The notes beneath the pieces are model-generated. The model was not told where the DNA came from. It saw nothing but the letters and a program-made list of their open reading frames with translations, and made no database searches. The translations under genes were made by a program, and so were the position numbers. From an uncultured Acidobacteriota bacterium (lineage in GTDB: Bacteria; Acidobacteriota; UBA6911): DNA of 64,000 nucleotides. Of this stretch, positions 24,125 through 47,570 are shown one piece after another (position 1 is the stretch's first letter; each line of letters opens with the position of its first letter). The stretch spans positions 320,001 through 384,000 of the forward strand of contig CAWHCF010000049.1 in NCBI GenBank assembly GCA_963827655.1, in the 5' to 3' direction.

Positions 24125-24550
24125 TCAACGCCACGAAGATACGGGTCGCCGGCGAGACGCCCAGCACATCAACCTCGCAGCAGGCGGATCACGTCCGGCA
24201 TCGAAAGCGCCTCTCGGCAGCGAACCGTCACGCCTCGAGCATTCACCACCTCGACCGCCTAGGGTGACGGCGGCGCAAGCAACGGAGGCATCTTGATCTC
24301 GCTGAAGATAACCGCGGGAGTTGTCGTTCGTTTCGCCTCGGCTAGCCAGCGCCTCAGCGTCCAGAGCGACATCCGCTCTCGGGCAGCGAACGCAGCCGCA
24401 GTCAGGCCGCTCTTGTGGAACCGCTCAAGGATCTCGGCGCGCTGCGCTCTATTTGTTCGGCGTGCCTGTTTCGGAATCCGTGCATCCGACATGCCCCCAG
24501 ATTATCCGCTCGAGACAGGGATAGCCAGATGCACCCTGGTTACCGCTTAC
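24125..24550 (-). mobile_element. IS66-family left-end remnant: TIR, tnpA (internal stop) and first codons of tnpB
   Basis: Minus strand begins GTAAGCGGTAAC (IS66-type GTAAGCG terminus). TnpA-like ERFHKSGLTAAAFAARERMSLWTLRRW..*AVEVVNARGVTVRC (24492-24169), then TnpB-like start MLGVSPATRIFVAL. Confidence 0.8.
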
Positions 24551-27500
24551 GAACACATCCCTCTACATTTACAAAGAAGTCGAACGGCCTCCTCTCTGCC
24601 AGTCCGATAACAAGCTGGACCAGGACTGACTCATTGGTGGTCAGCGTATCATCAGCGCCAGCATCAATGGCTTGCTTGCTGCCGGGCCCTCCGTTCCCCT
24701 CTGTGGCACTGACGAGCCTATTCCCATTGGACAGCGTCACGACATTCACTTTGAGGGGTTGGAAGATCTCCTTCGTGCTGGCATTGGTGAGCCTGGCGGT
24801 AATCGTAAACCTGCCAGCGGGCGCACCCGGACTGGGGGTGGGATCAAAGGAGGTTTGTGTCACAACAAAAGTGACCAGATCATTGACAATCTGTTGCTCA
24901 CACATCTGCTGCAAGGAGGCGCAATAGCGCCCGCCGGTGTTGGTCGTGGGAGACTCCCCCCCAGACGATCATTTCACTCCCGGTCCAGACCGCAGTGTGA
25001 CCGGATCGTGCACTGGGTGCATTCAGCGTGCTCGTGGGCCTCCAGCTGTCGGTTGCCGGATCGTAGCGCCCGCCGGTGTTGAAGACGGTAGAAACCGGTC
25101 TCCCCCCCAGACGATCATTTCACTACCGGTCCAGACCGCGCTGTGACCAGATCGTGCGCTGGGTGCATTCAGCGTGCTCGTGGGCCTCCAGCTGTCGGTT
25201 GCCGGATCGTAGCGCCCGCCGGTGTTGAGGTAAGGAAGACGGTGCCTCCCCCCCAGACGATCATTTCACTGCCCGGTCCAGACCGCGCTGTGACAGATCG
25301 TGCGCTGGGTGCATTCAGCGTGCTCGTGGGCCTCCAGCTGTCGGTTGCCGGATCGTAGCGCCCGCCGGTGTTGGGTGCGAGATCCCCCCCAGACGATCAT
25401 TTCATGCCCGGTCCAGACCGCAGTGTGACTGGATCGTGCGCTGGGTGCATTCAGCGTGCTCGTGGGCCTCCAGCTGTCGGTTGCCGGATCGTAGCGCCCG
25501 CCGGTGTTGAAGAAGGTAGAAGGAACTGCAGCCTCCTCCCCAGACGATCATTTCATGCCCGGTCCAGACCGCGGTGTGACTGGATCGTGCGCTGGGTGCA
25601 TTCAGCGTGCTCGTGGGCCTCCAGCTGTCGGTTACTGGATCGTAGCGCCCGCCGGTGTTGAAGAGGTAGAAGGACTGGCAGTTCCCCCCCAGACGATCAT
25701 TTCACTCCCGGTCCAGACCGCGCGTGTGACCAGATCGTGCGCTGGGTGCATTCAGCGTGCTCGTGGGCCTCCAGCTGTCGGTTGCCGGATCGTAGCGCCC
25801 GCCGGTGTTGAAGAATAGGAACTCGGCGAGCATCTCCTCCCCAGACGATCATTTCACTCCCGGTCCAGACCGCGGTGTGACCGCTCGTGCGCTGGGTGCA
25901 TTCAGCGTGCTCGTGGGCCTCCAGCTGTCGGTTGCCGGATCGTAGCGCCCGCCGGTGTTGGTAGACAGGGAATCCCCCCCCAGACGATCATTTCATGCCC
26001 GGTCCAGACCGCGGTGTGACCACGTCGTGCGCTGGGTGCATTCAGCGTGCTCGTTGGCCTCCAGCTGTCGGTTGCCGGATCGTAGCGCCCGCCGGTGTTG
26101 AAGTCGAGGGAAATCCCCCCCAGACGATCATTTCATGCCCGGTCCAGACCGCGGTGTGACTGCTTCGTGCGCTGGGTGCATTCAGCGTGCTCGTGGGCCT
26201 CCAGCTGTCGGTTGCCGGATCGTAGCGCCCGCCGGTGTTGAGGCAAGGAAACTCGGTGCCTCCTCCCCAGACGATCATTTCACTCCCGGTCCAGACCGCG
26301 GTGTGACTGCCTCGTGCGCTGGGTGCATTCAGCGTGCTCGTGGGCCTCCAGCTGTCGGTTGCCGGATCGTAGCGCCCGCCGGTGTTGAGGCGGCAGGAAC
26401 CCGGTGCTCCTCCCCAGACGATCATTTCACTGCCCGGTCCAGACCGCAGTGTGACTGGATCGTGCGCTGGGTGCATTCAGCGTGCTCGTGGGCCTCCAGC
26501 TGTCGGTTGCCGGATCGTAGCGCCCGCCGGTGTTGAAGTAGGTAGGAGCACCGCCGCTCCCCCAGACGATCATTTCATGGCCGGTCCAGACCGCGCTGTG
26601 ACCAGATCGTGCGCTGGGTGCATTCAGCGTGCTCGTGGGCCTCCAGCTGTCGGTTGCCGGATCGTAGCGCCCGCCGGTGTTGAGTGGTAGGAAACTCGGT
26701 GCCTCCCCCCAGACGATCATTTCACTCCCGGTCCAGACCGCGCTGTGACCGGCTCGTGCGCTGGGTGCATTCAGCGTGCTCGTGGGCCTCCAGCTGTCGG
26801 TTGCCGGATCGTAGCGCCCGCCGGTGTTGGTAGAAGGGATCCCGGAGACTCCTCCCCAGACGATCATTTCACTCCCGGTCCAGACCGCCGTGTGACCGGC
26901 TCGTGGGTCAGGGGGAGCTGGCGTTGGAGTCCAGGTGTCATCAGCGCACGAGTTCAAGGCCGGCTCTATTTTCGCCAGAAAATACCCATATCCCTGCCCG
27001 GCCACTTCTCCCCGTAGCTGCGGTCGCACTCTACTCCACCACTCTGCGAACGCTTCCTTCTTCCACTCCACGGTCGCCACCTTCAGTCGCGCTCCATCCT
27101 TTTCCACGACTGCCGCCACGTAGAACCGGTCCTCTTCCTCCTGTAACCGGCTCAGCTCACCCAGCGGCAGCCGATCCAACTCCTCCCGTACATCACGCTG
27201 CTCTCCCCCGAACTGGGCGCTAGTTTCCTTTCCTCCCGCGAATAACCGCGCCAGCTCGCGCACCTTCGCCTCCCAGTGCTCGGAACTCAATACCACTCTG
27301 TTCTCATGCTCCGATTCCTCCTGGCTTCCTCCTTTCACCCACTCCAGCTCTCGATACTCCCCGCTCATTTTCCCCATCTGTCTCGGCGTCCCGTACGAGC
27401 TCAGTTCCCCCTCCGCCCGCCGCTTCAGCTCTCCGTGATACCGCTCATCCGAGGCATACCAGCTCCTGATCAGCCGATGCGCCAGCGCCGGCCGCGCCAC

Positions 27501-27959
27501 GCACTCCGCGATCACAAAGGGATCATGCCCTAAAGCTGCCCATAGCTCCTCGAGCATCTCCGGCCGTTTCGTCTGCCGGGCCATCCGGTTCATCTCCGCC
27601 TGCAACTGCTCACCTGTAATCGGGCGCTGCCAATAGGCCTCGAGAGCTTCCGACTGGCGCAAATAATCTTTCACCTTCCCGACGATGGTCGAAAGCGGCA
27701 TTACCTGGTCCAATGATGGCTTTGGCTCGGGATTCTCCTCCGGCCATATCCTGTGACGCCAGTAAACTTCCTCGATCGCCCGTTGGTAAACTACACGCTC
27801 TTCGAAGGTCAAACTCCTCTGCTCTGTGTGCACGCCCGCTCTGCCTGCCCCAATCCAGGAATAAGCCAGCGGTGTCGTCGAAATGCCTAAAGCGATCAGC
27901 ACCAGTGCCAGCCCCACCCCATCTCTGCCGTGATTTGTTGAGTGATTCCGGTCTATCAT
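24540..27959 (-). CDS. Secreted Kelch-repeat protein (14 repeats) with shared C-terminal domain; frameshifts within repeats
   Basis: AGGAGG RBS, ATG27959 and hydrophobic signal. N-domain LTFEERVVYQRAIEEVYWRHRIWP; 14 x HTAVWTGSEMIVWGG..NTGGRYDPATDSW; C-domain is ORF 24540..24914. Confidence 0.8.
24925..26900 (-). repeat. 14 tandem ~140-155-bp Kelch-coding repeats with near-identical frameworks
   Basis: CAGACGATCATTT and GCGCCCGCCGGTGTTG each counted 14 times. Confidence 0.92.
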
Positions 27960-28274
27960 TGCGGTCCTCCTTGTTTTGAGAGCCCTGCTCAATGAACCGA
28001 GACTACACAAGGCAGCGTTGGATGGGGGGATTCATCCGAGTTCAGCATGAAAGATTCGATGCGCGGACTATATGCTTAGTAAAGCAGCAAATCAATTTCA
28101 GACCCAAGATCTTGCGTGCAAGGGGGCCTCGAGCCTTGTCATAGGAAGCAAAAGGCATATTCATAAAGGATCCTCCTGGAAGATTCCGTTTCTTGCAGCA
28201 TCGCTGACTACGGATCTTTCGACTACTGCCCGCCCCGCAAGGCGGTGAAGCCTTTGTGGCGAAGCTCGATGCCA

Positions 28275-28449: not shown

Positions 28450-28562
28450 CGCGCTGCGCTCTATTTGTTCGGCGTGCCTGTTTCGGAATCCGTGCATCCG
28501 ACATGCCCCCAGATTATCCGCTCGAGACAGGGATAGCCAGATGCACCCTGGTTACCGCTTAC
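28450..28562 (-). mobile_element. IS66 left-end copy 2 (~113 bp)
   Basis: Essentially identical to 24438-24550, including the GTAAGCG terminus and tnpA start MSDARIPKQARRTNRAQRA. Confidence 0.8.
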
Positions 28563-31263
28563 GAACACATCCCTCTACATTTACAAAGAAGTCGAACGGC
28601 CTCCTCTCTGCCAGTCCAATAACAAGCTGGACCAGGACTGACTCATTGGTGGTCAGCGTACCATCAGCGCCAGCATCAATGGCTTGCTTGCTGCCGGGCC
28701 CTCCGTTCCCCTCTGTGGCGCTGAGGAGCCTATTCCCATTGGACAGCGTCACGACATTCACTTTGAGGGGTTGGAAGATCTCCTTCGTGCTGGCATTGGT
28801 GAGCCTGGCGGTAATCGTAAACCTGCCAGCGGGCGCACCCGGGCCGGGGGTGGGATCAAAGGAGGTTTGTGTCACAACAAAGGTGACCAGATCATTGACA
28901 ATCTGTTGCTCACACACCGGTAGTGGAACACCAGCGGAGAGATTCGGGTCGAGCTTGGCGACAAAGACTTCACCGTCGCCTGCAAAGGTCATGTCCGCTG
29001 AGCCTGCCCCGATGCCGGAAAAGTCGGGGGAGGTTGTACCACCCGCCACATAAACATTCCCCATGCTGTCCAGGGCGACGGCACTAGCGCCCTCAAAACC
29101 ACTCCCCCCCAGGAAGGTGGCCGCCAAGAGCGTGCCGAGCTTGGCATCGAGCTTCGCCACAAAGGCGTCATTGGATCCACCAAACGTGCTATCGGCCGAG
29201 CCCACTCCGATCCCAGGAAAGTTGGGGGAGTTTGTAAGACCCGCCACATAGACGTTCCCCATGCTGTCCAGGGCAAGGGCACCAGCGATTTCAGTAAATA
29301 AAGAAGCAGGGCTCCCCCCCAGGAAGGTGGCTCCCAGGAGCGTGCCGAGGTTGGCATCGAGCTTCGCCACAAAGCCTTCCCAGGCTCCAGCAAAAGTACT
29401 GTCGGCCGAGCCCGCCCCAATGCCCGGAAAGTCGGGGGAGGTTGTACCACCCGCCACATAAACATTCCCCATGCTGTCCAGGGCGAGGGCAAAACCTGCG
29501 TCAGAATCACCAATTATGCGGAGACCACTCCCCCCCAGGAAGGTGGCCGCCAGCAGTCTGCTGAGATTGGCATCGAGCTTCGCCACAAAGGCTTCCTGGC
29601 CTCCAGAAAAGGCGCTGTCGGCCGAGCCCACTCCGATCCCAGGAAAGTCGACAGATCCTGTCCAACCCGCCACATAGACATTACCCAGGCTGTCCAGGGT
29701 GAGGACATCGGCGCCTTCACCACGGCTCCCCCCCAGGAAGGTGGCGGCCAGCAGTCTGCTAAGATTGGCATCGAGCTTCGCCACAAAGGCTTCACTGAAT
29801 TCAGAAAAGGTGCTGTCGGCCGAGCCCACCCCGACCCCGGGGAAGTCTGAGGACCCTGTGAAACCCGCCACATAGACATTTCCCATGCTGTCCAGGGCGA
29901 GGGCATTGGCGGAATCACCACTGCTCCCCCCCAGGAAGGTAGCCGCCAAGAGCGTGCTGAGATTGGCATCGAGCTTCGCCACAAAGGCTTCACCGAATTC
30001 AGAAAAGGTGCTGTCGGCTGAGCCCGCCCCGACCCCGGGGAAGTCTGAGGACCCTGAGGAACCCGCCACATAGACATTCCCGATGCTGTCCAGGGCGAGG
30101 GCTCCAGCGAAGTCTTCAGCACTTCCCCCAAGGAAGGTGGCCGCCAGGAGCGTGCTGAGATTGGCATCGAGCTTGGCAACAAAGACTTCACGGTTTCCTG
30201 CAAAGGTGCTGTCGGCCGAGCCCGCCCCGATCCTGGGGAAGTCTGAGGACACTGTGGAACCCGCCACATACACATTCCCCAGGCTGTCCATGGCGAGGGC
30301 AGCAGCGAAGTCTTCAGCACTCCCCCCCAGGAAGGTGGCGGCCAGAATAGGATCGATCACCAACTCTTTTGTCTTGTCATACGCGCCAACCTCAAAGCCG
30401 TACTCATTGCCCTTTACTACATAGGCTACCGCCACCAACTCTTGCTTGCCTCTCTCTTCTTGATAGGCCACAGGCTTGGAGAATGTCACTGTCCCCAGCT
30501 TTGTCTTGACTTCCAATTCCCCCTGCTTGGTGATCTTTAATCCCTTCCCGCCTCGCATCCGCAGCTTGATCTGCTCCGGCCGACCTCCAGGTCGCACATA
30601 AAAGAGCTTTTCCGTCGTGTGCCCATAGGCCTTGAGCTTCACTTCCACTCCCGCATACACTTCTCCCAGACTCACACAATCGTATGTGGGAATATCATTC
30701 GTCCACTTCGATCGGTTATTCCCCTTGAAGTAGTTCAGCTTGGTAGTCGTCTTGCCCTCTCCCTGCACTGCTGTCACTGCTCCCCCTACCAGCTCCTCCC
30801 GCAAAGCGACTGCCTGGCCTGGACTTTTTCCCTTCCCCTGGGACAGGGCATACACGAACGCACCTTTCTGTGTTACAAAAACAGTTCCCCCAAAGATAGG
30901 GGCATAGAAGGTGACCTCTGCTTCCGTCTGTCCCTGATTCTTGATAAAAGGAATATGCAGCTTCCCGATCTTCTGCCGGACTGCCTTTAGGAGCTTGTCC
31001 TTGTCGCTATGCGCACGTGATGGCTGCGAGACGTCCTGGTTACCATCGGCGGAGTGGCGATCGGCCCCCAGAGCCCCTGGCCCACCAAAGTGTCCGAAAG
31101 CCAGGAGAGAGACGATCAAGGCCACCACAGACATACGCAGCGCTCTGCCGGACGGCCTCTTGCAACTGTTTTCTGCCTTGGTTTGCCGCTTCAGCTTCGG
31201 CTCCCGCCATGTTTTTGTGTTCTTTTGTGCTGCTTGCGATAGTCGAACTGCTTCCTCTTCCAT
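28552..31263 (-). CDS. Secreted SBBP (seven-bladed beta-propeller) repeat protein, copy 1, with shared C-terminal domain
   Basis: Intact ORF (track start GTG31281; RBS-supported ATG MEEEA at 31263). N-domain FIKNQGQ..LNYFKGN..ELVIDP; 7 x ATFLGGS..ALALDSMGNVYVAG.T.S.DFP..EAFVAKLD. Confidence 0.88.
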   Translation of the reverse strand: MEEEAVRLSQAAQKNTKTWREPKLKRQTKAENSCKRPSGRALRMSVVALIVSLLAFGHFGGPGALGADRHSADGNQDVSQPSRAHSDKDKLLKAVRQKIGKLHIPFIKNQGQTEAEVTFYAPIFGGTVFVTQKGAFVYALSQGKGKSPGQAVALREELVGGAVTAVQGEGKTTTKLNYFKGNNRSKWTNDIPTYDCVSLGEVYAGVEVKLKAYGHTTEKLFYVRPGGRPEQIKLRMRGGKGLKITKQGELEVKTKLGTVTFSKPVAYQEERGKQELVAVAYVVKGNEYGFEVGAYDKTKELVIDPILAATFLGGSAEDFAAALAMDSLGNVYVAGSTVSSDFPRIGAGSADSTFAGNREVFVAKLDANLSTLLAATFLGGSAEDFAGALALDSIGNVYVAGSSGSSDFPGVGAGSADSTFSEFGEAFVAKLDANLSTLLAATFLGGSSGDSANALALDSMGNVYVAGFTGSSDFPGVGVGSADSTFSEFSEAFVAKLDANLSRLLAATFLGGSRGEGADVLTLDSLGNVYVAGWTGSVDFPGIGVGSADSAFSGGQEAFVAKLDANLSRLLAATFLGGSGLRIIGDSDAGFALALDSMGNVYVAGGTTSPDFPGIGAGSADSTFAGAWEGFVAKLDANLGTLLGATFLGGSPASLFTEIAGALALDSMGNVYVAGLTNSPNFPGIGVGSADSTFGGSNDAFVAKLDAKLGTLLAATFLGGSGFEGASAVALDSMGNVYVAGGTTSPDFSGIGAGSADMTFAGDGEVFVAKLDPNLSAGVPLPVCEQQIVNDLVTFVVTQTSFDPTPGPGAPAGRFTITARLTNASTKEIFQPLKVNVVTLSNGNRLLSATEGNGGPGSKQAIDAGADGTLTTNESVLVQLVIGLAERRPFDFFVNVEGCVRKR

Positions 31264-31394
31264 GTTTATCTCCCTAGCCACTAGTTTCGCGGCCTCAATC
31301 TGCCATTAGAGGATCCAGGTGCTCTGGCAACTGATCTTTTGCATAGTTTCTCCATCTCTTTCCGTCCCTATGCTGTCGTCTAGGAACAAAAGAT

Positions 31395-31715: not shown

Positions 31716-31829
31716 CGCGCTGGGCTCTATTTGTTCGGCGTGCCTGTTTCGGAAGCTGTGCATCCGACATGCCCCCCGGAATATCCGCTCGAGACAGGGA
31801 TAGCCGGATGCACCCTGGTTACCGCTTAC
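31716..31829 (-). mobile_element. IS66 left-end copy 3 (diverged)
   Basis: GTAAGCGGTAACCAGGGTGCATC terminus at 31829; tnpA start MSDAQLPKQARRTNRAQRA. Confidence 0.78.
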
Positions 31830-34555
31830 GAATACACCCCTCTACATCCACAAAGAAGCTGAACGGCCTACTCTCTACCAGTCCAATAACAAACTGGACC
31901 AGGACTGACTCATTGGTGGTCAGGGCATCATCAGCGCCAGCATTAATGCTCTGCTTGCTGCCGGGCCTCCTCCGTTCCCCTCTGTAGCGCTGAGGAGCCT
32001 ATTCCCATTGGACAGTGTCTTGACACTCACTTTGAGGGGTTGGAAGATGCCCTCCGTGCTGGCATTGGTAAGCCTGGCGTTAATCGTAAATCTGCCAGCG
32101 GGCGCACCCGGACCGGGGGTGGGGTCAAAGGAGGTTTGTGTCACAACAAAGGTGACCAGGTCATTGACAATCTGTTGCTCACACACCGGTAGTGGAACAC
32201 CAGCGGAAAGATTCGCGTCGAGCTTGGCGACAAAGACTTCACCGTCGCCTGCAAAGGTCATGTCCGCTGAGCCTGCCCCGATGCCGGGAAAGTCAGCGGA
32301 GGTTGTACCACCCGCCACATAAACATTCCCCATGCTGTCCAGGGCGACGGCACTAGCGCCCGTCAGAACTACTCCCCCCCAGGAAGGTGGCCGCCAAGAG
32401 CGTGCCGAGATTGGCATCAAGCTTCGCCACAAAGGCTTCATTGAATCCACCAAACGTGCTATCGGCCGAGCCCACTCCGATCCCAGGAAAGTCGCGGGAG
32501 TTTGTAAGACCCGCCACATAGACATTCCCCATGCTGTCCAGGGCAAGGGCACAAGCGATTTCAGAAAATAAAAAAGCAGCTCCCCCCCAGGAAGGTGGCT
32601 CCCAGGAGCGTGCCGAGATTGGCATCGAGCTTCGCCACAAAGCCTTCACCATACAACAAAAGTACTGTCGGCCGAGCCCGCCCCGATGCCCGGAAAGTCG
32701 GCGGAGCTTGTGATACCCGCCACATAAACATTCCCCATGCTGTCCAGGGCGAGGGCACCAACGCCGTCAGAATCACCAAAAATGCGGACCACTCCCTCCC
32801 AGGAAGGTGGCCGCCAGCAGTCTGCCGAGATTGGCATCGAGCTTCGCCACAAAGGCTTCCTGGCTTCCAGAAAAGGCGCTGTCGGCCGAGCCCCCCGGAC
32901 CCCGGGGAAGTCTGAGGATTGTGTGAAACCCGCCACATAGACATTCCCCATGCTGTCCAGGGCGAGGGTCACCAGCCGGAATACCACCGCCGCTCCCCCC
33001 CAGGAAGGTGGCCGCCAGAAGTCTGCTAAGATTGGCATCGAGCTTCGCCACAAAGGCCTCACCGTCTCCAGAAAAGGCGCTGTCGGCCGAGCCCGCCCCG
33101 ATCCCGGGAAAGTCGGCGGAAAAGGTGAAGCCCGCCACATAGACATTCCCGATGCTGTCCAGGGCGAGGGCATTGGCGGAATCAGCACTGCTCCCCCCCA
33201 GGAAGGTGGCCCCCAGCAGTCTGCTAAGATTGGAATCGAGCTTCGCCACAAAGGCTTCACCGCCTCAGCAAAGATGCTGTCGGCTGAGCCCGCCCCGACC
33301 CCGGGGAAGTCTGAGGACTCTGTAAAACCCGCCACATAGACATTCCCCATGCTGTCCAGGGCGAGGGCACAACCTCAGCGAAATCGACCACTCCCCCCCA
33401 GGAAGGTGGCCGCCAGCAGACTACTGAGATTGGCATCGAGCTTCGCCACAAAGGCTTCACTGTCTCCTGCAAGGATGACAAGGTGCTGTCGGCTGAGCCC
33501 GCCCCGACCCCGGGAAAGTCGGTGGATTCTGTAGAACCCGCCACATAGACATTCCCCATGCTGTCCAGGGCGATGGCGAAAGGTTGCAGCGAAATCGTCA
33601 AAACCACTCCCCCCAAGGAAGGTCGCCGCCAGGATAGGATCGATCACCAACTCTTTTGTCTTGTCATACTCGCCAACCTTAAAGCCGTACTCATTTCCCT
33701 TTACTACATAGGCCACCGCCACCAACTCTTGTTTGCCTCCCTCGTCCTGATAGGCCACAGGCTTGGAGAATCTCACTGTTCCCAGCTTTGTCTCGACCTC
33801 CAGTTCCCCCTGCTCAGCGACCTTTACTCCCTTCCCACCCTGCACCCGCACCTTGATCTGTTCCGGCCGAGCTCCAGGTCGCACATAAAAGAGCTTCTCC
33901 GCCGTGTGCCCATAGGCCTTGAGCTTCACTTCCACTCCCTCATACACTTCTCCCAGACTCACACAATCGTATGCGGGAATATCATTCGTCCACTTCGATC
34001 GGTTATTCCCCTTGAAGTAGTTCAGCTTGGTAGTCGTCTGACCCTCTCCCTCCACTGCTTTCACTTTTCCCCCTACGAGCTCCTCCCGCAAAGCGACTCC
34101 CCGGCTTGGCCTCTTTCCCTCCCCTTGGGACAGGGCATACACGAACGCGCCTTTCTGTGTGACAAAAACCGTTCCCCCAAAGGTAGGGGCATAGAAGGTG
34201 ACCTCTGCATCCGTCTGTCCCTGATTCTTGATAAAAGGAATATGCAGCTTCCCGATCTTCTGCCGGACTGCCTTTAGGACGTTGTCCTTGTGGCCAAGCG
34301 CATGTGATGGCTGCGAGACGAAAACGCCCTGGGTACCATCGGCGGAGTGGCGATCGGCCCCTAGAGCCCCTGCTCCACCAAAGTGTCCGAGAGCCAGCAG
34401 AGAGACGATTAAGGCCACCAGAGACACACGCAGCGCTCTGCCGGACGGCCTCTTGCCACTGTTTTCTGCCTTGGTTGCCGCTTCAGCTTCGGCTCCCGCC
34501 ATGTTTTTGTGCTCTCCTGTGCTGCTTGCGATAGCCGAACTGTTTCCTCTTCCAT
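31819..34555 (-). CDS. SBBP repeat protein, copy 2 (many frameshifts; pseudogene or sequencing error)
   Basis: Collinear with copy 1 from MEEETVRLSQAAQESTKTWREPKLK through 7 SBBP repeats to ..VEGCIRKR*; pieces in ORFs 33375..34502, 32773..33249 and 31920..32552. Confidence 0.78.
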
Positions 34556-34689
34556 GGTCATCTCCCTGGCCACTAATTTGTCGGCCTCAATTTGCTATTA
34601 GCGTTCCCTATTAGTTCTCTCCATCTCTTTCCGTCTTTATGCCGTCGTCTAAGAACAAAAGTTGGCTACCAGAGCACTAGCACATCTTC

Positions 34690-35826: not shown

Positions 35827-35839
35827 CATGGAGGCATCG

Positions 35840-36019: not shown

Positions 36020-36169
36020 TGACTTTTGTACTTTTGGAGGAAAGGCGATCGCCGTCCTGTAAGCGGATAAGGATCGAGAGGACGGTCTGAGAGATGGGAC
36101 GCCAATCGGAAGGGCCGTCGAATCCCAAGTGCAAACGTAACGCCGCGCTACTGAATACCTCAGGCAAAA

Positions 36170-37303: not shown

Positions 37304-37321
37304 GGCCCCAGGACAGACGAC

Positions 37322-38618: not shown

Positions 38619-39134
38619 TCATCCGTCCGGCCAGGGGTGAAGATCTCCCGAGTTTGGCCGTCCTCTTTCGACAAGAGATCGCGTATCAGAGGCAGATCTG
38701 TCCATTTTGGGAGCTCTCGCCTCAGTTCGATTGTCTGAGCTTTTTGCAGACCAAGCTGAGCAATCCCCACGAGCGGCTGTTTGTAGCGGAGCGAAACGCG
38801 CAACTATTAGGTTATATCCTTGTCCGGGTCATCCAGGCGCCTCACCATCGTTTTCCGAGAAACATCTTTAGACATTTTTTTTCAGAGAAATCAACTCTTG
38901 CATTCATCCGGCCGCCCAACACTGGCTCCATTGAGGACTGCTATGTCGAACCACAGTCGCGGCGGCAGCGAGTGGGCAGCGCTCTGTTGAAACAGGGTCT
39001 TGAGATGGTTGGAGGCACAAGGGGTAAGGCACATAGAGCTCGCAGTCTCCGCGGGAAATGGAGATGGCATTGCTTTTTGGGAGAGGCAGGGCTTCGTCTC
39101 GTCTCGATTCCTTATGTTCAAGGAGATCGGCTGA
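38615..39134 (+). CDS. GNAT-family N-acetyltransferase (frameshift at ~39005)
   Basis: MIIRPA..DL, CYVEPQSRRQRVGSALL (motif A); shifted tail WLEAQGVRHIELAVSAGN..IAFWERQGF*. Confidence 0.85.
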
Positions 39135-39137
39135 ATT

Positions 39138-40397
39138 ATGCAATGGATTCCTCCGTTGAATCTATCTCCTGAATGGAGATTTGTACTCGCGTCCGCCCGA
39201 ACCGACATTCCTCTGCATGACCTGCAGATTGGTCTAGCTAGCCAGGATTTAGATTGGGATCGCGTGACAGAAATCTCATACCGGCATGGTATAGCGCCGC
39301 TGATCTATTACAACCTCAAGCGCCGCGAGGTTACCGGTGTCGTGACAAGCAGTGCGTTGAACAAATTGAAGGAATCCTATTACGGCAATGCAGCCAGAAA
39401 TGGACTTCTTTACCGTGAACTGCATAAGGTCCTGGGATCCCTCAAAGATGTGGGAATTGAGGTTATTGTGCTGAAGGGCGCAATGCTTGCGGAGACCGTA
39501 TATCCGAATCGAGCTCTAAGACCGATGAACGATATCGATCTTCTGGTCAGAAAGGAAGCTGTATCGAGAGCCGAGGATAAGCTCGCTGAGCTTGGCTACA
39601 GTTTGCGCGAAAGTCCCAGATCGAAAGAATGGTTTAAAGAATATCATCACCATTTACCTCTTGTCAGGTACGAGGCCGGTCCCCTCGAAATTCACTTGGA
39701 AGTTCATTGGGATATCCAAGGCCCAGGGAAACCGTTCAAGATAGGGATCGACAGAATTTGGAGCACAGCACTGCCGGTCACGATAGCCGGTGTTGAGTGC
39801 TCCGTGCTGTCCAGGGAGGACTTGCTACTGCATCTATGCCTCCATACCTGTCACCCCCACAAGTTGACCGGCGGGATAAGATCTCTTTGCGATATCGCCG
39901 AAACTATCCAGCGGTATGGTCGACAGATCGACTGGAATCAGTTACAGACTCGTTCGTCTCGATGGCGAATAAATCAATACGTTTACCTCACGCTGCGTCT
40001 CGCCAAGGAGCTATTGGGAGCGGAGGTTCCGGATCCCGTATTAGACTCTCTTGAGCCCCACGGCTTCGACCGCGGGCTGGTCCGGTGGGCAAAAGAAGAG
40101 ATTCTGGGAGACAAGGAAGCTTCCCCAATCTTTCCTGAGCTCGCGCAACTATGGAGCGGGCGCCGTATTAAAGACAGGTTGCAGATCCTGGTGAGGATAC
40201 TTTCCCCAAAATTAATCGCAAAGTATCAGGGAATTTCGCCGGCGTCAAAGAGAATCTATCTCCATTATCCGGCACGGCTCAAAACCCTTTTCTTGCGGTA
40301 TGGTCCGGTGCTGTGGGGCCTGGTTCGTTGCGATCGGAAACTAACAGCGGCAGCGGAGGGAAAAGCGCGATTGGCGGAGTGGCTGAATAAGTGCTGA
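39138..40397 (+). CDS. Nucleotidyltransferase family protein (NTP_transf_5-type, as in lasso/RRE clusters)
   Basis: DWD....HGIAPL, IVLKGAMLAETVYP...RPMNDIDLLV, LEVHW, LLHLCLH, LCDIAE. Confidence 0.88.
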   Translation: MQWIPPLNLSPEWRFVLASARTDIPLHDLQIGLASQDLDWDRVTEISYRHGIAPLIYYNLKRREVTGVVTSSALNKLKESYYGNAARNGLLYRELHKVLGSLKDVGIEVIVLKGAMLAETVYPNRALRPMNDIDLLVRKEAVSRAEDKLAELGYSLRESPRSKEWFKEYHHHLPLVRYEAGPLEIHLEVHWDIQGPGKPFKIGIDRIWSTALPVTIAGVECSVLSREDLLLHLCLHTCHPHKLTGGIRSLCDIAETIQRYGRQIDWNQLQTRSSRWRINQYVYLTLRLAKELLGAEVPDPVLDSLEPHGFDRGLVRWAKEEILGDKEASPIFPELAQLWSGRRIKDRLQILVRILSPKLIAKYQGISPASKRIYLHYPARLKTLFLRYGPVLWGLVRCDRKLTAAAEGKARLAEWLNKC

Positions 40398-40777: not shown

Positions 40778-41795
40778 ATGAATACACAGAACAGTAACAC
40801 GATCGGTTTCAACAGATGGTTTGGGATGATGTGCGTGTGGGGAGTGGCGGCCCTGATTGCGCTGACCGCGACGTCTGCGGAGGCCGCGGGATTTAACGTC
40901 AATAGCGAGGTGACGTTCACTCCGCTCCCCTCGACATACACGACGACCACCAGCACGACCGGCTGTCCGGCAGCATTTTCCGGAAAGTTCACCTTTACCG
41001 CCCTGTTAACGAATAAGACCGGAAGCCCGGCGATGCCGGGTCTGACCGTCCGCGTCGTGACGCTCACCAACGGTAATCTGCTGCTGGACCCGCAAACCAA
41101 CGCCGTCCTAGGCGGAGAGGGCGCGGAGATGACAGTACCCAAGGTGGAGCAGTATGCCGACGGCCTGCTCAGTCCGGGCGAGTCGGTGAACGTCCCGTTC
41201 TCGGTGTGCTTAAAGACATTTCAACCGTTTCAGTTTTTCGTGGACGTGTTCGGTGTCGTGACCCGATTGGTCAGCATCAACCGGTTTGGAACCGGGTCCG
41301 GCAATGGCTCTTCGTTTGTCCGCCCAGCGGCGATCAGCGCGGACGGCCGTTTCGTGGCATTCGACAGCGCAGCGAGCGATTTGGTGGCAAACGATACCAA
41401 CGGCTACCGACGACGTGTTCGTGCGGGATCTGCAGCTGGGGACGACTACGTTGGTGAGCATCAACCGGTTTGGAACCGGGTCCGGCAATGGCTCCTCCTT
41501 CGCCTCCGTGATCAGCGCGGACGGCCGTTTCGTGGCGTTTCCAGCGCAGCGAGCGATTTGGTGGCAAACGATACCAACGGTATACCAACGACGTGTTCGT
41601 GCGGGATCTGCAGCTGGGGACGACTACGTTGGTGAGCATCAACCGGTTTGGAACCGGGTCCGGCAATGGCTCTCGGTTGGTCTCCGTGATCAGCGCGGAC
41701 GGCCGTTTCGTGGCATTCAGAGCGTTGCGAGCGATTTGGTGGCCAACGATACCAACGGTACCAGCGACCTGTTCGTGCGTCCTGTCGCGCCCTGA
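40778..41795 (+). CDS. Secreted protein: shared ~115-aa domain plus 3 TolB/PD40-like repeats (frameshifted)
   Basis: Signal peptide; domain ..GNLLL..LSPGESVNVPF..FQFFVDVFG; repeats ISADGRFVAF.S.ASDLVANDTNG..DVFVRDL. Confidence 0.75.
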
Positions 41796-41878: not shown

Positions 41879-41942
41879 CGGATTTTAATATGAAATTACA
41901 ATGGCAGATTAAGGTCACGAAACTAATGGCGCGGAGGTAACC

Positions 41943-44649
41943 ATGGAAGAGGAAGAAGTTCGGTTATCACAAGCAGCACAGGAGAGCACAAAAACATGGC
42001 GGGAGCCGAAGCTGAAGTGGCAAACCAAGGCAGAAAACAGTTGCAAGAGGCCGTCCGGCAGAGCGCTGCGTGTGTCTCTGGTGGCCTTAATCGTCTCTCT
42101 GCTGGCTCTCGGACACTTTGCTGGGGCAGGGGCTCTAGGGGCCGATCGCCACTCCGCCGATGGTACCCAGGGCGTTTTCGTCTCGCAGCCATCAGATGCG
42201 CATAGCGACAAGGACAACATCCTAAAAAACAGTCCGGCAGAAGATCGGGAAGCTACATATTCCTTTTATCAAGAATCAGGGACAGACGGATTCAGAGGTC
42301 AGCTTCTATGCCCCTACCTTTGGCGGAACGGTTTTTGTCACACAGAAAGGCGCATTCGTGTATGCCCTGTCCCAGGGGAAGGGAAAGAGGCAACAGGGGA
42401 GTCGCTTTGCGGGAGGAGCTGGTAGGGGGAGCAGTGAAAGCAGTGCAGGGAGAGGGCAAGACGACTACCAAGCTGAACTACTTCAAGGGGAATAACCGAT
42501 CGAAGTGGACGAATCACATTCCCACATACGATTGTGTAAGTCTGGGAGAAGTGTATGCGGGGGTGGAAGTGAAGCTCAAGGCCTATGGGCACACGGCGGA
42601 AAAGCTCTTTTATGTGCGACCTGGAGCTCGGCCGGAGCAGATCGAGCTGCGGATGCGAGGCGGGAAGGGATTAAAGATCACCAAGCAGGGAGAACTGGAG
42701 GTCGAGACGGAGCTGGGGACAGTGACATTCTCCAAGCCTGTGGCCTATCAGGAAGAGGGAGGCAAGCAAGAGTTGGTGGCGGTGGCCTATGTAGTAAAGG
42801 GCAGTGAGTACGGTTTTAAGGTTGGCGAGTATGACAAGACAAAAGAGTTGGTGATCGATCCTATCCTGGCGGCCACCTTCCTGGGGGGGAGTGGTCTTGA
42901 CGCCATTAGTGACTTCGCCCTGGACAGCATGGGGAACGTCTATGTGGCGGGTGTCACAACCTCTCCACGACTTTCCCCACATCGGGACGGGCTCAGCCGA
43001 CAATACCTTTGCAGGCGGCACTGAAGCTTTTGTCGCCAAGCTCGATGCCACTCTCAGCACGCTCCTGGCGGCCACCTTCCTCGGGGGAGTGGCTTTTTTG
43101 GTGAGGAGGCTGGGGCCCTTGCCCTGGACAGCGTGGGGAATGTCGATGTGGCGGGTTCCACAGACTCCTCAGACTTTCCCGGGGTCGGGGCGGGCTCGGC
43201 CGACAGCACCCTTGTGGAGGGCAGTGACGTTTTTGTGGCGAAGCTCGATGCCAATCTCCGCACGCTCCTGGCGGCCACCTTCCTGGGGGGGAGTATTCAA
43301 GACTTCGCTGGTGCCCTCGCCCTGGACAGCATGGGGAATGTCTATGCGGCGGGTTTCACCGTTCCGTCGACTTTCCTGGGATCGGAGTGGGCTCGGCCGA
43401 CAGTACCTTTGCTGGAGCCTGGGAAGGCTTTTGTGGCGAAGCTCGATGCCAATCTCAGGACACTGCTGGCCGTCACCTTCCTGGGGGGGAGTGGTGTTGA
43501 CGCCATTAATGCCCTCACCCTGGACAGCATGGGGAATGTCTATGTGGCGGGTTGGACAGCCTCCTCAGACTTCCCCGGGGTCGGGGCGGGCTCGGCCGAC
43601 AGCACCTTTGCTGGAGGCAGTGAAGCCTTTGTGGCGAAGCTCGATGCCAATCTAAGCAGACTGCTGGCGGCCACCTTCCTGGGGGGGAGTGCTGTTAATA
43701 ATGAACAGGTTCATGCGGCCTCGCCTTGGACGGCACGGGGAATGTCTATGTGACGGGCTTCACAGAATCCGCCGACTTTCCTGGGGTCGGGGGGCGGTTC
43801 GGCCGACAGCACCTTTGCTGGAGGCAGTGAAGCCTTTGTGGCGAAGCTCGATGCCAATCTTAGCAGACTGTCTGGCGGCCACCTTCCTGGGGGGGAGTGG
43901 TGTTGACTCCGCTCTCTGCCCTCGCCTTGGACGGCACGGGGAATATCTATGTGACGGGTGGCACAGGATCCACCGACTTTCCTGGGGTCGGGGGCGGTTC
44001 GGCCGATAGTCACCTTTGCTGGAAGCAATGAAGCCTTTGTCGCCAAGCTCGATGCCAATCTCGGCACTCTGCGAGCGGCCACCTTCCTGGGGGGAGCAGT
44101 AGTGAAGGCGCCGGTGCCCTCGCCCTGGACAGCATGGGGAATGTCTATGTGGCGGGTTCCACGGAGTCCTCAGACTTCCCCGGGGTCGGGGCGGGCTCAG
44201 CTGACGTGACCATTGCCGGAGGCAATGAAGCCTTTGTCGCCAAACTCGACCCGAATCTCTCTCGTGATGTTCCACTACCGGTGTGTAAGCAACAGATTGT
44301 CAATGACCTGGTCACCTTTGTTGTGACACAAACCTCCTTGGACCCTACCCCCGGCCCTCGTGCGCCCGCTGGCAGGTATACGATTACCGCCAGGCTCACC
44401 AACGCCAGCACGAAGGACATCTTCCAACCTCTCAAAGTGAACGTCGTGACGCTGTCCAATGGGAATAGGCTCGTCAGCGCCACAGAGGGGAACGGAGGGC
44501 CCGGCAGCAAGCAGGGCATTAATGCTGGCGCTGATGATACCCTGACCGCCAATGAGTCAGTCCTAGTCCAGTTTGTTATCGGATTGGTCGAGAGGAGCCC
44601 CTTCAGTTTCTTTGTAAATGTAGAGGGATGTGTTCGCGCTGACCCCTAG
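41943..44649 (+). CDS. SBBP repeat protein, copy 3 (opposite strand; many frameshifts) with un-interrupted C-terminus VEGCVRADP
   Basis: GGAGG RBS, MEEEEVRLSQAAQESTKTWREPKLK, 7 SBBP repeats, C-domain in ORF 44134..44649. Confidence 0.8.
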
Positions 44650-44934: not shown

Positions 44935-45480
44935 ATGAGCCTACTGTCATGCCGGTTGAGAAACGTAGTGACGCTGGTGGCTTTCTTTGGCGCCTTTGCG
45001 ACCGTTGGACTTGCCCGTGACTGGAGCTTGAATCTGAGACAGGGGAATCAAGATTCAGCAAGATTCACTCTAAAGGTTAAAGACGGGAGGGTGTCGATTG
45101 GGGCGAAAGACATCTCCGTCGCAGAAATCTTCAAGGACCTCAGTCAGCAGACCGGAATACCTATTGAAAATACGCTGAGAACTGAAGAAAGGATCACGAT
45201 CCAGTTTAGCGATTTGCCGATGGCGGAAGCGGTGGCGAGGCTGGCTAACGTATTGATCTTCTATGACAAGAATCCTGCCGATCCAACATCTCCGCGGATC
45301 GTCAAGATCGTAGTATCTGCGAAGGGGAAGGAAGTTTCGGCTACCGCCCTCAAGCCTGCCCCTGCCGCCGGTGCGGTTGGAGAACCTGAGAAGACTCCGG
45401 CACCCAAGCCTTTCGAGTTTGTCTTGGACCCGTCCAAGCCTTCACAGGCGCCCGAGAAGAAGACTCGCAAGGAGAACTAG
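44935..45480 (+). CDS. Exported protein with secretin/TonB N-terminal (STN/N0)-like domain
   Basis: Signal peptide; VSIGAKDISVAEIFKDLSQQTGIPI..ITIQFSDLPMAEAVARL pattern; Pro-rich tail. Confidence 0.6.
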   Translation: MSLLSCRLRNVVTLVAFFGAFATVGLARDWSLNLRQGNQDSARFTLKVKDGRVSIGAKDISVAEIFKDLSQQTGIPIENTLRTEERITIQFSDLPMAEAVARLANVLIFYDKNPADPTSPRIVKIVVSAKGKEVSATALKPAPAAGAVGEPEKTPAPKPFEFVLDPSKPSQAPEKKTRKEN

Positions 45481-45495: not shown

Positions 45496-45900
45496 ATGAG
45501 AAATTTTCTCTGGCTTGGCGTTGTCCTGGGGTTTGTCAGTATTCGGTTAGCTTCCGCAGGGGAGAAAGTCAGCCAAGGTGTTATTGAGGCTCTGCGGAGA
45601 GAAGGTGGAGCGAACGTAGTTGTCGCACTTGTAGAGCCTCTGTCCATGCGGGCGCCGCGGATTGATCTGCCCACACTGAGGAGCGAGATCGCGAGTATGC
45701 AGTCTCAGGTGTTGTCGACACTGGACCCTACGGATTACCGCGAGAGGCACAGGTATGAGACTATCCCCAGCTTGGCCATTTGGGTCGCGAAGGCGGGGCT
45801 TGCGAAGTTAATAGCGCATCCCAAAGTAGTGAGAATCGACCTGGATGTCGGCGGTACAGGGAAGCCTAGAAAAAGAAAGTGCGATAGGCACCGCAAATAG
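45496..45900 (+). CDS. Stand-alone S8 propeptide (I9-like) paralog of the next gene's N-terminus
   Basis: Aligns residue-for-residue with 45939 protein aa 1-121 up to IDLDVGGTG, then ends in a basic tail. Confidence 0.7.
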   Translation: MRNFLWLGVVLGFVSIRLASAGEKVSQGVIEALRREGGANVVVALVEPLSMRAPRIDLPTLRSEIASMQSQVLSTLDPTDYRERHRYETIPSLAIWVAKAGLAKLIAHPKVVRIDLDVGGTGKPRKRKCDRHRK

Positions 45901-45938
45901 GGGTCAATGGAGCTGAACGTCGTGCTGCGAGGTGGGTC

Positions 45939-47570
45939 ATGAAAAATTTACTATGGCTTGGGATTCTCCTGGGGTTTGTCGGTGTTCGATTAGCTTCCGC
46001 ACAGGAGAAAGTCGGTCAAGGCGTTATCGAGATTCTACAAAGAGAGGGTGGGGCGAACGTAGTCATCGCACTCGTGGAGCCTCCATCCATGCGGGCATCG
46101 CAGATTGATCTGCCCATCTTGAGGAGCGAGATTGCCAGTCTACAAGCTCAGGTGTTATCCACCTTATATGCTTCGGATTACCGTGAGAGACATAGATTCC
46201 GAGCTGTGCCCGCCTTGGCGGGCCGGGTAAGCAGGGCTGGACTTGCAGAACTTGTAGCAAATCCCAACGTGGTGAAAATCGACCTGGATGTTGGCGGTAC
46301 CGGGAGCCTAGCAAACAGTGTCCCGCTCATTCGTGCTGATGATTGGCACGCACTCGGAATCACGGGTAGGGGGGTGGTAGTGGCCGTACTTGATACGGGG
46401 ATTGATACGGATCATGTCGACCTAGCCGATGATCTTGTTCACCAAGAATGTTTTCTTGATTTCGACGGAGCAATTAACGGGGTAGGGCGCTGTCCCAACG
46501 GTAGTGATAGACAATCGGGAGACGGCGCGGCAGAAAGCGGACTAAACCACGGGGTGATGACGACAGGGATAATCACTTCACGAGGGACCGTGAGTTCAGT
46601 TGGCGTTGCACCGGATGCTAAAATCGTGTCGATTAAGGTCCTCGATAACACCCAACCTGCTGGCATATTCGCATTTTTCTCAGAGTTAGTAGCCGCGTTG
46701 GATTTCATTATCAACAATCGCCCCGATGTGAAAGTCATCAATATGAGCCTTGGGACGTTTGCTTTGTTCGCGGGTAACTGTGATAGCGCGACAGCCTTCA
46801 ACATGGCCGGCGCAGCTGCCATCAATACGTTACGGAAAAATGGGGTAATCGCCTTTGCGGCTTCAGGTAATAATGGATCAGGAACTCAGATGACGTCTCC
46901 TGCCTGTATCAGTAACGTGGTATCGGTGGGAGCTACGAATAATGTCGATAATGTAGCAGCTTTCACAAACAGTAATGCTTTTCTCGATCTTATGGCGCCC
47001 GGGGTTTATATCACATCTACGGCGTTGGCTAATGGAATCGCAACCGGGTCCGGAACGAGCTTCGCAAGTCCTCACGCGGCGGGTTGTGCCGCTCTGTTCG
47101 TTGATGCGGGGATAGCTGTAAGTCCTGCCCAGATTGAGGCGCGCCTAAAAGCATCGACGGTACGGATTACTGATCCGAAAAATGGTCTTGCATTTCCAAG
47201 GCTCGACTGCTTTGTTGGTGTGGAGATTGTTAACGACTTGGTCTCAGTGGCTCCATTAGTCACTTCCTCAAGTACTACTCCGGTTCCGAATGGTCCTGCT
47301 GGAATATTCGGTATTATAACAACCTTTACCAACACCAGTTCCACTTCTATACTGAATCCATTCTTTGGAGTTGTAGAACTCTCCGGTGGAAACTTGTTGC
47401 TCAATGCCGATAGTGGTCCAGGTGGAGTTGGAGCCACTTTGACTCCTAATGTAGGCGCTGATCGGATTTTATCACCGGGAGAATCTTTTAATGTGATTTT
47501 TATAGTTGGTCTTCAATCCAGTCAGCGTTTCACATTCTTTGTCAATCTGTCAGGAGTGCCAGATCCATAA
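45939..47570 (+). CDS. Secreted S8 (subtilisin-like) serine protease with shared C-terminal domain
   Basis: Triad motifs VAVLDTG, NHG, GTSFASPH; oxyanion AASGN; signal plus propeptide. Confidence 0.92.
   Translation: MKNLLWLGILLGFVGVRLASAQEKVGQGVIEILQREGGANVVIALVEPPSMRASQIDLPILRSEIASLQAQVLSTLYASDYRERHRFRAVPALAGRVSRAGLAELVANPNVVKIDLDVGGTGSLANSVPLIRADDWHALGITGRGVVVAVLDTGIDTDHVDLADDLVHQECFLDFDGAINGVGRCPNGSDRQSGDGAAESGLNHGVMTTGIITSRGTVSSVGVAPDAKIVSIKVLDNTQPAGIFAFFSELVAALDFIINNRPDVKVINMSLGTFALFAGNCDSATAFNMAGAAAINTLRKNGVIAFAASGNNGSGTQMTSPACISNVVSVGATNNVDNVAAFTNSNAFLDLMAPGVYITSTALANGIATGSGTSFASPHAAGCAALFVDAGIAVSPAQIEARLKASTVRITDPKNGLAFPRLDCFVGVEIVNDLVSVAPLVTSSSTTPVPNGPAGIFGIITTFTNTSSTSILNPFFGVVELSGGNLLLNADSGPGGVGATLTPNVGADRILSPGESFNVIFIVGLQSSQRFTFFVNLSGVPDP

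Follow-up and report, generated by a model that had tools for sequence, protein, structure and literature searches.

In a stretch of 64,000 nucleotides from an uncultured Acidobacteriota bacterium (lineage UBA6911; hereafter the window, meaning the whole stretch), a unit of about 115-120 residues recurs in six genes, which lie in two groups on either side of a plus-strand operon (35241-40397) for a short precursor peptide and a set of peptide-modifying enzymes. The unit represents a real beta-sandwich domain family, as yet without a name, and is usually the last domain of secreted proteins. Most likely, with a probability that we put at roughly one half, the domain would serve as a receptor for the peptide that this cassette encodes. 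Shared gene neighbourhoods, natural fusions of the domain to a core-like peptide and a predicted complex of the two point to this role.

The six domain copies and their hosts

Translation of all six stretches yielded the recurring unit, and the five intact copies share 30 invariant columns (alignment A1). The genes that carry it (tagged genes) and one companion gene are as follows.

~24540-28031, minus strand: Kelch-type gene, domain copy 1 at its C-terminal end (24543-24902; profile E 3e-63)
28552-31281, minus strand: SBBP1, intact protein of DUF7948 and SBBP repeats, open frame of 917 aa, domain copy 2 (28555-28914; E 3.7e-63)
31822-34594, minus strand: SBBP2, disrupted tandem paralogue of SBBP1 (89% DNA identity to the SBBP1 unit), domain copy 3 (31822-32186)
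40778-41795, plus strand: PD40-type gene with signal peptide, domain copy 4 (40892-41260) and propeller repeats (BLASTP, profile and translation)
41934-44649, plus strand: SBBP3, disrupted inverted paralogue of SBBP1 (86% DNA identity), intact domain copy 5 (44281-44646)
44935-45480, plus strand: companion protein 'p189' of 181 aa, with an N-terminal hydrophobic segment, a small folded part and a Pro/Lys-rich tail (homologues beside domain genes)
45939-47570, plus strand: S8 subtilase with signal peptide, intact at 543 aa (Pfam Peptidase_S8 6.9e-40), domain copy 6 C-terminal (47220-47567; E 2.5e-51)

The copies in the Kelch-type gene, SBBP1 and SBBP3 are 88-98% identical to one another, and those of the S8 protease and the PD40-type gene are about 40% identical to them. 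BLASTP nevertheless aligned the divergent copies with E values of 2e-21 (SBBP1 and S8), 4e-16 (SBBP1 and PD40-type) and 3e-12 (S8 and PD40-type). Searched with the A1 profile, the whole genome (8,177,139 bases in 53 contigs) contained the domain at six places only, all within 23 kb; the profile gave seven matches for these six places, the SBBP2 copy being split in two. Pfam matches supported the nature of the hosts: DUF7948 (4.7e-53) and SBBP (3.6e-36) in SBBP1, and Kelch on the fragments 26045-26476 and 26430-28031. Signal-peptide-like N-termini, judged by eye, are present on SBBP1, the S8 protease, the PD40-type protein and the 44935 companion.

The DNA of SBBP1, SBBP2 and SBBP3 is 86-89% identical over about 3 kb, so that there are four kinds of host rather than six. 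Moreover, the 3′ end of the Kelch-type gene (24427-24904, the last 479 nt, including about 113 nt beyond the stop) is 97.9% identical to that of SBBP1, which indicates that the tag has recently moved between genes.

A domain family without a described relative

Pfam contains no model for the domain. The best match and the sole family to score, the LapA domain PF20579, stayed below its gathering cut-off of 27 bits: the Kelch-type copy scored 17.3 (E 0.0064) and two further copies 13.3 and 16.9, the S8 and PD40-type copies gave no score, and the S8 copy had no Pfam match whatsoever at E ≤ 10. A scan of four copies against NCBIfam returned nothing meaningful, and a profile search of the PDB sequences gave E 0.73 at best. 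Neither CARDB, DUF11, Big, FN3, PKD or TIG models nor models of the type IX secretion C-terminal domain (CTD) or of other sorting domains matched at E ≤ 10 (five copies in Pfam, four in NCBIfam).

The family itself is large. A profile search of 1.84 billion representative proteins retrieved 1348 clusters (at 50% identity) with E ≤ 1e-3, of which 922 reach E ≤ 1e-10 and 48 reach E ≤ 1e-30, and a second search with the S8 copy as query gave 92 proteins, further or overlapping. Members are annotated as 'hypothetical' or by the part that the domain is attached to; the labels Candidatus Loosdrechtia, Chloroflexota, Anaerolineae and Planctomycetes occur among them. Among the first 110 relatives, which were scanned with Pfam, 41 carried partner domains (SBBP, DUF7948, DUF5122, FG-GAP, right-handed beta-helix/NosD, PD40, TIG, Laminin_G_3, Vgb_lyase, lactonase, GSDH, Peptidase_C1 and HYR) and the other 69 none; in none of the 110 did a Pfam match overlap the domain, TIG, Big_1, HYR and similar modules all lying outside its range. 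The 229 occurrences found in 228 proteins are mostly terminal: 178 end within 12 residues of the C-terminus, 34 are internal, and 17 are N-terminal, following a signal-like segment and typically preceding PD40 repeats. Two subtypes can be told apart, one free of cysteine and one with two conserved cysteines (T-G-C-P and I-C-L), the latter including the N-terminal copies. The distribution is patchy: a close form of the domain occurs in one of 60 relatives of the genome, and weak matches (E 1e-8 to 1e-17), in very large proteins, in five of 400 genomes of the same phylum.

In six members (P0082, P0111, P0116, P0188, P0202 and P0203) the domain is followed by an acidic stretch and a terminal ...L-[FY]-[FLI]-P-[LMIV]-[LIV]-x-x; two of these six are labelled Chloroflexota or Anaerolineae, and the tail may be a different sorting or docking signal.

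An AlphaFold2 model of the domain, computed from a 35-row alignment, has seven strands and high confidence (predicted local distance difference test, pLDDT, 97.1; predicted template-modelling score, pTM, 0.87). Foldseek found nothing at E ≤ 1e-3, its best hit being the C-terminal domain of a Clostridium chitinase (8ose; E 3.5e-3, TM 0.44). An exhaustive fold search with VIA ended in a plateau of Z 7.8 to 6, a range that the tool itself rates as common, made up of chitinase/CBM2 modules, transglutaminase barrels, macroglobulin domains and adaptor ear domains; the CBM2/chitinase candidates 8ose (Z 7.8, root-mean-square deviation 2.6 with 92 residues aligned) and 3ndy (Z 7.5) stand level with many unrelated sandwiches. 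As modelled, the domain is a beta-sandwich of ordinary topology without an identifiable structural relative.

These results can be set against the original prediction for this DNA. The six positions it had given for the domain were borne out by translation, by alignment A1 and by the genome profile. Its statement that the domain belongs to no known family agrees with the Pfam, NCBIfam and PDB searches, which likewise brought up none of the described Ig-like, CARDB or DUF11 models, and the S8 and PD40-type copies proved to align significantly with SBBP1 and with each other. The partner table speaks for a modular tag on very different secreted proteins. The hosts had been called six unrelated proteins: they are indeed of different kinds, yet the three SBBP genes are paralogues and the Kelch-type gene shares its 3′ end with SBBP1. 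An 'STN-like' label for the 44935 protein was not confirmed, as Pfam gave no family for it at E ≤ 1. The label 'PD40' likewise found no Pfam match at E ≤ 1 on the window fragments, yet the gene is 67-70% identical to the proteins P0009 and P0025, the second of which carries PD40 repeats.

A peptide-maturation cassette with a lasso-type leader

The operon between the tagged genes resembles biosynthetic clusters of RiPPs, peptides that the ribosome makes and that are modified after translation. Its genes, all on the plus strand, are listed here; L numbers denote loci that were retrieved through the domain (see below).

35241-35692, plus strand: homologue of lasso-B2-like (Transglut_core3-type) leader proteases, by tblastn to the B2 genes of L011, L014, L018 and L048/49
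35828-36019, plus strand: precursor peptide of 63 aa (NCBIfam lasso_leader_L3, 20.1 bits, cut-off 19)
36170-37303, plus strand: HprK-like kinase (Pfam Hpr_kinase_C 5.4e-09; NCBIfam HprK_rel_A/B below cut-off)
37322-38371, plus strand: radical S-adenosylmethionine (radical-SAM) enzyme (Pfam Radical_SAM 1.5e-22; nearest NCBIfam models are SPASM-type peptide/cofactor maturases, all below cut-off)
38307-38618, plus strand: PqqD-family peptide chaperone, that is, a RiPP recognition element (RRE) (Pfam PqqD 4.3e-17; NCBIfam lasso_PqqD 4.6e-13, below cut-off)
38615-39172, plus strand: GNAT acetyltransferase (Pfam Acetyltransf_1 6.5e-09; found at the same position in L014)
39138-40397, plus strand: nucleotidyltransferase of family PF14907 (NTP_transf_5; Pfam 2.2e-65)

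The window copy of the B2 gene has no Pfam match of its own; the B2 genes of the matched loci hit Pfam Transglut_core3 or NCBIfam lasso_biosyn_B2. The window precursor consists of a leader with W-E-E-P-R-L...K-P-K-L-T-I-H-G and the core G-F-F-G-G-F-T-P, and is the sole such peptide in the genome. Homologues were found in 13 other loci, directly upstream of the kinase gene. Their alignment (A4) shows an invariant leader pattern, W-x-x-P-x-L...P-x-L-T-x-H-G-x-L-x-x-x-T, in which W33, P36 and L38 are fixed, followed by Phe/Gly-rich cores of 8-16 residues that read (A)G-F-F-G-x-F-[S/T/D]-P and in some cases end in a short Pro/Gly tail. The precursor profile, scored on 15 candidates in each genome, had no match in 400 other genomes of the window's phylum or in 400 genomes of the phylum of G441, one of the precursor-bearing genomes.

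A lasso cyclase (Asn-synthetase-like) is absent: no such Pfam family occurs among the window frames from about 17.8 to 53.7 kb or in the Pfam-scanned cassette loci L011, L014, L015, L018, L023, L038, L039, L048 and L053. The window core also contains neither Asp nor Glu, so that it lacks the acidic residue for ring closure. Pfam scans covering the 20-kb flanks of the cassette revealed neither a SipW-like signal peptidase nor an MsbA-like/ABC transporter. In the literature outside subscription journals, our search met no description of the cassette, of the domain or of a RiPP receptor tag on secreted proteins.

A sequence resembling the leader also occurs elsewhere in the window. The N-terminal extensions of SBBP1-3 (31150-31290 and 34440-34590 on the minus strand, 41940-42080 on the plus strand) contain K-T-W-R-E-P-K-L-K upstream of a hydrophobic signal-like segment. 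This fits the recognition motif W-x-E-P-x-L of the precursor leader and occurs in 0 of 228 other family members. It could be a chance match, a trace left by recombination with the gene of the precursor, or a true handle for the RRE.

Genetic linkage of domain and cassette

The linkage was assessed in 44 loci that were retrieved through the domain alone: five from species-representative genomes, two from one relative (of 60) and 37 from metagenome contigs, mostly of 1-6 kb. The retrieval patterns, derived from alignments A1 and A3, do not cover the whole family (they brought up 5 and 37 loci, respectively). By tblastn with a Pfam cross-check, 24 of the 44 loci have a cassette gene or the companion gene close to the domain gene (22 by cassette genes alone), counts that are not fully independent because L022/L023, L048/L049 and L041/L042/L044 are near-duplicates. 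The original prediction had proposed to look for a neighbourhood bias towards RRE and radical-SAM genes, and this bias is strong.

Synteny with the window is complete in L014 (labelled as a deltaproteobacterium), L039, L048 and L055 (from genome G437, whose L010 is labelled Acidobacteriota). The conserved order is B2, precursor, kinase, radical-SAM enzyme, PqqD, sometimes GNAT, and nucleotidyltransferase, with tagged genes on the flanks. Overall, the domain loci carry the labels Acidobacteriota, Acidimicrobiia, a beta- and a deltaproteobacterium, and arrays of two to five tagged genes are common among them. The precursor is present in four of the five genomes behind L010-L014; in the fifth, the contig end cuts the cassette. 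Conversely, a domain gene lies within 10 kb of the precursor in five of six precursor-bearing genomes (G000, G014, G437, G438 and G441). Homologues of the 44935 companion occur in seven of the 44 loci (L014, L015, L039, L040, L046 and L048/49), making it a candidate accessory or scaffold of the system. Transposase, DDE endonuclease and integrase genes were found near some domain loci.

Genome G437 shows a further arrangement. Most of its domain matches (loci L055 and L056, contig C12) span only the C-terminal ~85 profile positions, which include the predicted peptide-binding strand; an array of four partial-domain genes lies 55 kb from the cassette, which is itself flanked by two more.

Fused tails and a predicted complex

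In 13 of the 228 members, all among the 34 internal occurrences, a basic tail of about 35 residues comes after the domain and ends in ...[V]-T-x-K-G-F-F-G-R-F-R-P. The G-F-F-G-R-F-R-P element lies 0-10 residues from the stop, and one member has C for G. This tail parallels the junction of leader and core in the free precursor, ...V-T-(A)-G-F-F-G-G-F-[S/T]-P. When two elements that are otherwise encoded separately turn up in one protein, this is classically taken as evidence of a joint function.

Prediction of a complex between domain (A2) and precursor (A4) gave a median score of 0.73 (runs of 0.85, 0.70 and 0.73), the best of three controls reaching 0.02. In the calibration, 0.73 is reached by 116 of 157 solved complexes and by 2 of 215 mismatched pairs, counts that hold only roughly here because our own alignments were used. 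At least 97% of the contacts were common to the runs, and the partner pLDDT of 45-46 is as expected for a mostly disordered leader. The predicted contacts join precursor residues 54-63 (L-T-G-F-F-G-G-F-T-P) to domain positions 7, 12, 14, 17, 19, 29-30, 32, 34, 36, 55-56, 101 and 104-113. In the model, the core runs along 104-113, the P-F-x-F-F-V strand, and touches the first two long strands at positions 12, 14, 32, 34 and 36. All four columns with the highest conservation in the 229-sequence alignment (F107, L101, V111 and G30) fall within the predicted interface, and the interface columns average 2.65 bits compared with 2.20 for the rest (permutation p 0.035). Docking of the fused tail in cis was considered as well; the model of a complete fused protein, P0076, gave no sign of it.

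Frame disruption and the wider window

Only SBBP1 and the S8 protease are intact among the tagged genes; the Kelch-type gene, SBBP2, SBBP3 and the PD40-type gene carry frame changes or in-frame stops. SBBP2 is spread over three frames with two in-frame stops, its own domain copy being split by a frameshift near 31960, and SBBP3 consists of four frame segments with additional in-frame stops. The PD40-type gene switches frame twice beyond about 41400. The Kelch-type gene is disrupted between 24968 and 26430; its body (24925-26905, minus strand) is built of tandem repeats of about 147 bp with about 90% mutual identity, and the frame is most broken there. Long open frames cover 0.67 of the locus, compared with a genome median of 0.86 (per 20 kb), which places it in the bottom 2%.

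Stop-codon reassignment was considered as a cause. Reading through TGA lengthens the frames, yet SBBP2, SBBP3 and the PD40-type gene also switch frame repeatedly, and for this reason recoding does not account for the breaks. Public read-derived contigs are short, of low depth and 93-99% alike; they lie mostly over the cassette, and almost nothing covers SBBP2 and SBBP3. Outside the locus, two further genes are each split over two frames, showing that in this assembly the disruption is not confined to tagged genes. These and other features of the wider window are:

5053-8658, plus strand: outer-membrane protein of 1202 aa with CarboxypepD_reg and OMP_b-brl_4
45496-45900, plus strand: partial copy of the S8 protease's signal peptide and pro-region (72% identical to 45939-46304)
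49580-50268, minus strand: TumE-toxin-like gene beside an HVO_A0114/HTH_20 regulator, just beyond the island, probably a toxin-antitoxin pair
50879-51566, minus strand: 3-keto-disaccharide hydrolase, split
55000-56185, minus strand: Ser/Thr protein kinase, split

The frame at 45496-45900 lies a short way upstream of the S8 gene and encodes a propeptide-like protein in its own right, or else it is the scar of a duplication. The OMP_b-brl_4 protein, together with sigma-54 regulators and TPR-linked kinases in the window, is probably gene content typical of Acidobacteriota.

Proposed function and alternatives

If the domain is a receptor for the peptide, the exported and modified core would lie as an extra strand along the last and most conserved strand of the domain (P-F-x-F-F-V), its phenylalanines in a groove formed with the first two long strands, and would mark, link or anchor every protein that bears the tag. 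Maturation can be sketched from lasso-peptide enzymology, where discrete lasso-type RREs recognise [Y/W]xxPx[L/V/I/F/A] (PMC13381572), and where, according to PMC8498205, homologues of HPr kinase place a phosphate on the C-terminal Ser of lasso precursors, to which a nucleotidyltransferase then adds hexoses. PqqD would accordingly bind the W-x-x-P-x-L leader, the radical-SAM enzyme would alter the Phe/Gly core, and the B2 protease would cut off the leader. The HprK-like kinase would phosphorylate the Ser/Thr before the final Pro, a phosphate that the nucleotidyltransferase might extend as in paeninodin and pseudomycoidin; the GNAT enzyme may cap the new N-terminus. After export the peptide would be bound by the tag and could, depending on what its decoration ties it to, anchor, cross-link or regulate the secreted proteins; the S8 protease could equally hold it, through its own tag, as a substrate.

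From here one may go further, tentatively, to an extracellular assembly in which the modified peptide acts as a universal adaptor or anchor and propellers, proteases, nucleases and lectin-like proteins dock through one receptor domain; members with a G-F-F-G-R-F-R-P tail could then chain head-to-tail. A docking role had also been part of the original prediction, which gathered the tagged proteins in one putative extracellular complex. The complex model supports docking as such, though with the short peptide of the adjacent cassette as predicted partner and not another tagged protein.

Several observations weigh against a receptor role. Binding is predicted by a model, for the unmodified peptide, and with a calibration that is only approximate; the enrichment of conserved columns in the interface is modest, and the residues concerned are mostly hydrophobic, so that their conservation may simply reflect a place in the core. 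In the AlphaFold2 model of P0076, the G-F-F-G-R-F-R-P tail is left disordered (pLDDT 49-56, no strand). The linkage, too, is incomplete: 20 of the 44 loci lack a cassette gene, and although eight of these are shorter than 3 kb, L010, L012, L016 and L032 measure 9.5-20 kb. Genome G439 has a complete cassette with no domain gene within 10 kb and a single tagged gene on another contig. The five of 400 same-phylum genomes with weak domain matches, like the rest of the 400, have no precursor, so distant forms of the domain exist without this peptide. Pfam scans of the window found no peptide exporter. Finally, with four of the six tagged genes disrupted, the locus may be decaying, assembly error being the alternative cause of the broken frames.

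The foremost alternative is a generic structural or adhesive beta-sandwich (a stalk, a surface module or something like a carbohydrate-binding module) that travels with the cassette through a shared island or lifestyle and never touches the peptide. It would account for the purely generic fold matches, with Foldseek at 3.5e-3 and VIA at Z 7.8 at best and with CBM2, transglutaminase and macroglobulin folds tied just below, as well as for the patchy distribution, the mobility genes near some loci and the loci without a cassette. It does not explain why the linkage recurs under the labels Acidobacteriota, Acidimicrobiia, beta- and deltaproteobacteria while passengers vary and the tag stays constant; the core-like tail in 13 members is hard to understand without a functional link, and the complex prediction passed its controls. 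We regard a generic sandwich as rather unlikely.

Less probable still is that the tagged proteins are themselves substrates of the cassette, the domain presenting its own C-terminus to the kinase, the nucleotidyltransferase or the radical-SAM enzyme before export and the free precursor being the minimal form of the substrate. The 13 fused tails do mimic the leader/core junction, further members end in ...S-N-P or ...G-S-P, and the W-R-E-P-K-L of the SBBP1-3 extensions fits the RRE recognition pattern; the paeninodin kinase, according to PMC8498205, recognises a C-terminal Ser largely irrespective of the remaining peptide. However, the precursor profile finds a leader-like motif in none of the 228 members, W-x-[ED]-P-x-L is absent from all 228, and the fused tails have Arg where free cores carry the Ser/Thr that a kinase would need. 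Most members, moreover, end shortly (a few residues) behind the last strand and show no conserved acceptor, and 17 of the 229 occurrences are N-terminal. A secretion or sorting domain read by a dedicated export or attachment machine, as the type IX secretion CTD is, would suit the C-terminal position on very varied cargo and the size and beta-sandwich fold that resemble type IX-like CTDs, but we consider it very improbable, given the N-terminal and internal occurrences, the lack of sorting-domain matches in Pfam and NCBIfam, the absence of recurring secretion genes from the scanned neighbourhoods and the presence of the domain under the label Acidimicrobiia in addition to Proteobacteria and Acidobacteriota. 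The N-terminal occurrences also speak against the sorting option of the original prediction, as far as a C-terminal signal is meant.

If the receptor reading is true, a domain found in more than 1000 protein clusters of soil and sediment bacteria gains a name and a testable function, and proteins now called 'hypothetical' or named by their passenger part become annotatable. The radical-SAM/kinase/nucleotidyltransferase cassette with its lasso-type leader, which has no described product or role, now has a likely protein partner proposed for it, and an orphan RiPP cluster would be reduced to a question of binding between an 8-residue peptide and a 115-residue domain. A peptide acting as adaptor for secreted enzymes would widen the known roles of ribosomal peptides, being a structural ligand rather than an antibiotic, a signal or a cofactor, and the two components would make a small, genetically encodable pair of tag and ligand.

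Comparison with known systems

With the phosphorylated or phosphoglycosylated lasso clusters (paeninodin, pseudomycoidin) and the clusters for linear polyphosphorylated peptides (LPPs) of Bacillota, as described in PMC8498205 and PMC13381572, the cassette shares a discrete RRE, a [Y/W]xxPx[L..] leader, an HprK-like kinase and an uncharacterised nucleoside triphosphate (NTP) transferase. Its B2-type protease is a point in common with the lasso clusters, and the absent macrolactam cyclase one with the LPPs. Measured against the lasso pathway, the cassette has the [Y/W]xxPxL leader, the discrete PqqD-type RRE and the B2 protease and lacks the cyclase and the acidic core residue. LPP clusters contain a SipW-like signal peptidase I and an MsbA-like transporter (PMC13381572); the window scans found neither, the cassette having a radical-SAM enzyme and B2 instead. 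The accessible portions of PMC8498205 and PMC13381572 make no mention of a tagged family of secreted proteins for either type of cluster. The cassette is thus closest to the phosphorylated lasso and LPP clusters, without their defining cyclase or SipW/transporter and with an added radical-SAM enzyme.

For the proposed binding mode, a parallel may be sought in clathrin adaptor ear domains (GAE, gamma-adaptin ear), which bind short aromatic-Gly peptide motifs. Both would be small beta-sandwiches with a short linear aromatic/Gly peptide on their surface, in our case a predicted one, and ear domains appear among the fold matches (3mnm, Z 7.1; 2ymt, Z 6.8; 1w80, Z 6.9), at Z values in the range of chance resemblance. 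The ears are eukaryotic and cytosolic, whereas the domain is bacterial and extracellular and has no sequence relation to them, so the analogy is one of mechanism only. Tag-based assembly of secreted enzymes is known from cohesin and dockerin. There, as here, one small module sits on many secreted proteins with differing catalytic or binding parts, encoded in arrays; unlike there, the predicted partner is a modified RiPP peptide of about eight residues and no scaffold protein, and cohesin reached a mere Z 6.2 in the fold search.

Pyrroloquinoline quinone (PQQ) with its quinoprotein propellers and mycofactocin with its dehydrogenases are peptide-derived molecules whose cognate partner families are encoded alongside. 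By analogy, these two may be taken as the nearest conceptual precedent: like the present system, they combine a short ribosomal precursor with a PqqD-type chaperone and a radical-SAM enzyme, and have a partner family recognised by linkage and patchy co-distribution. The cassette described here differs in adding a lasso-type leader protease, a kinase and a nucleotidyltransferase. It differs, too, in what its putative partners hold in common, a small non-catalytic beta-sandwich on many unrelated secreted proteins, and a constant element of this kind suggests docking or anchoring rather than service as a redox cofactor in an active site.

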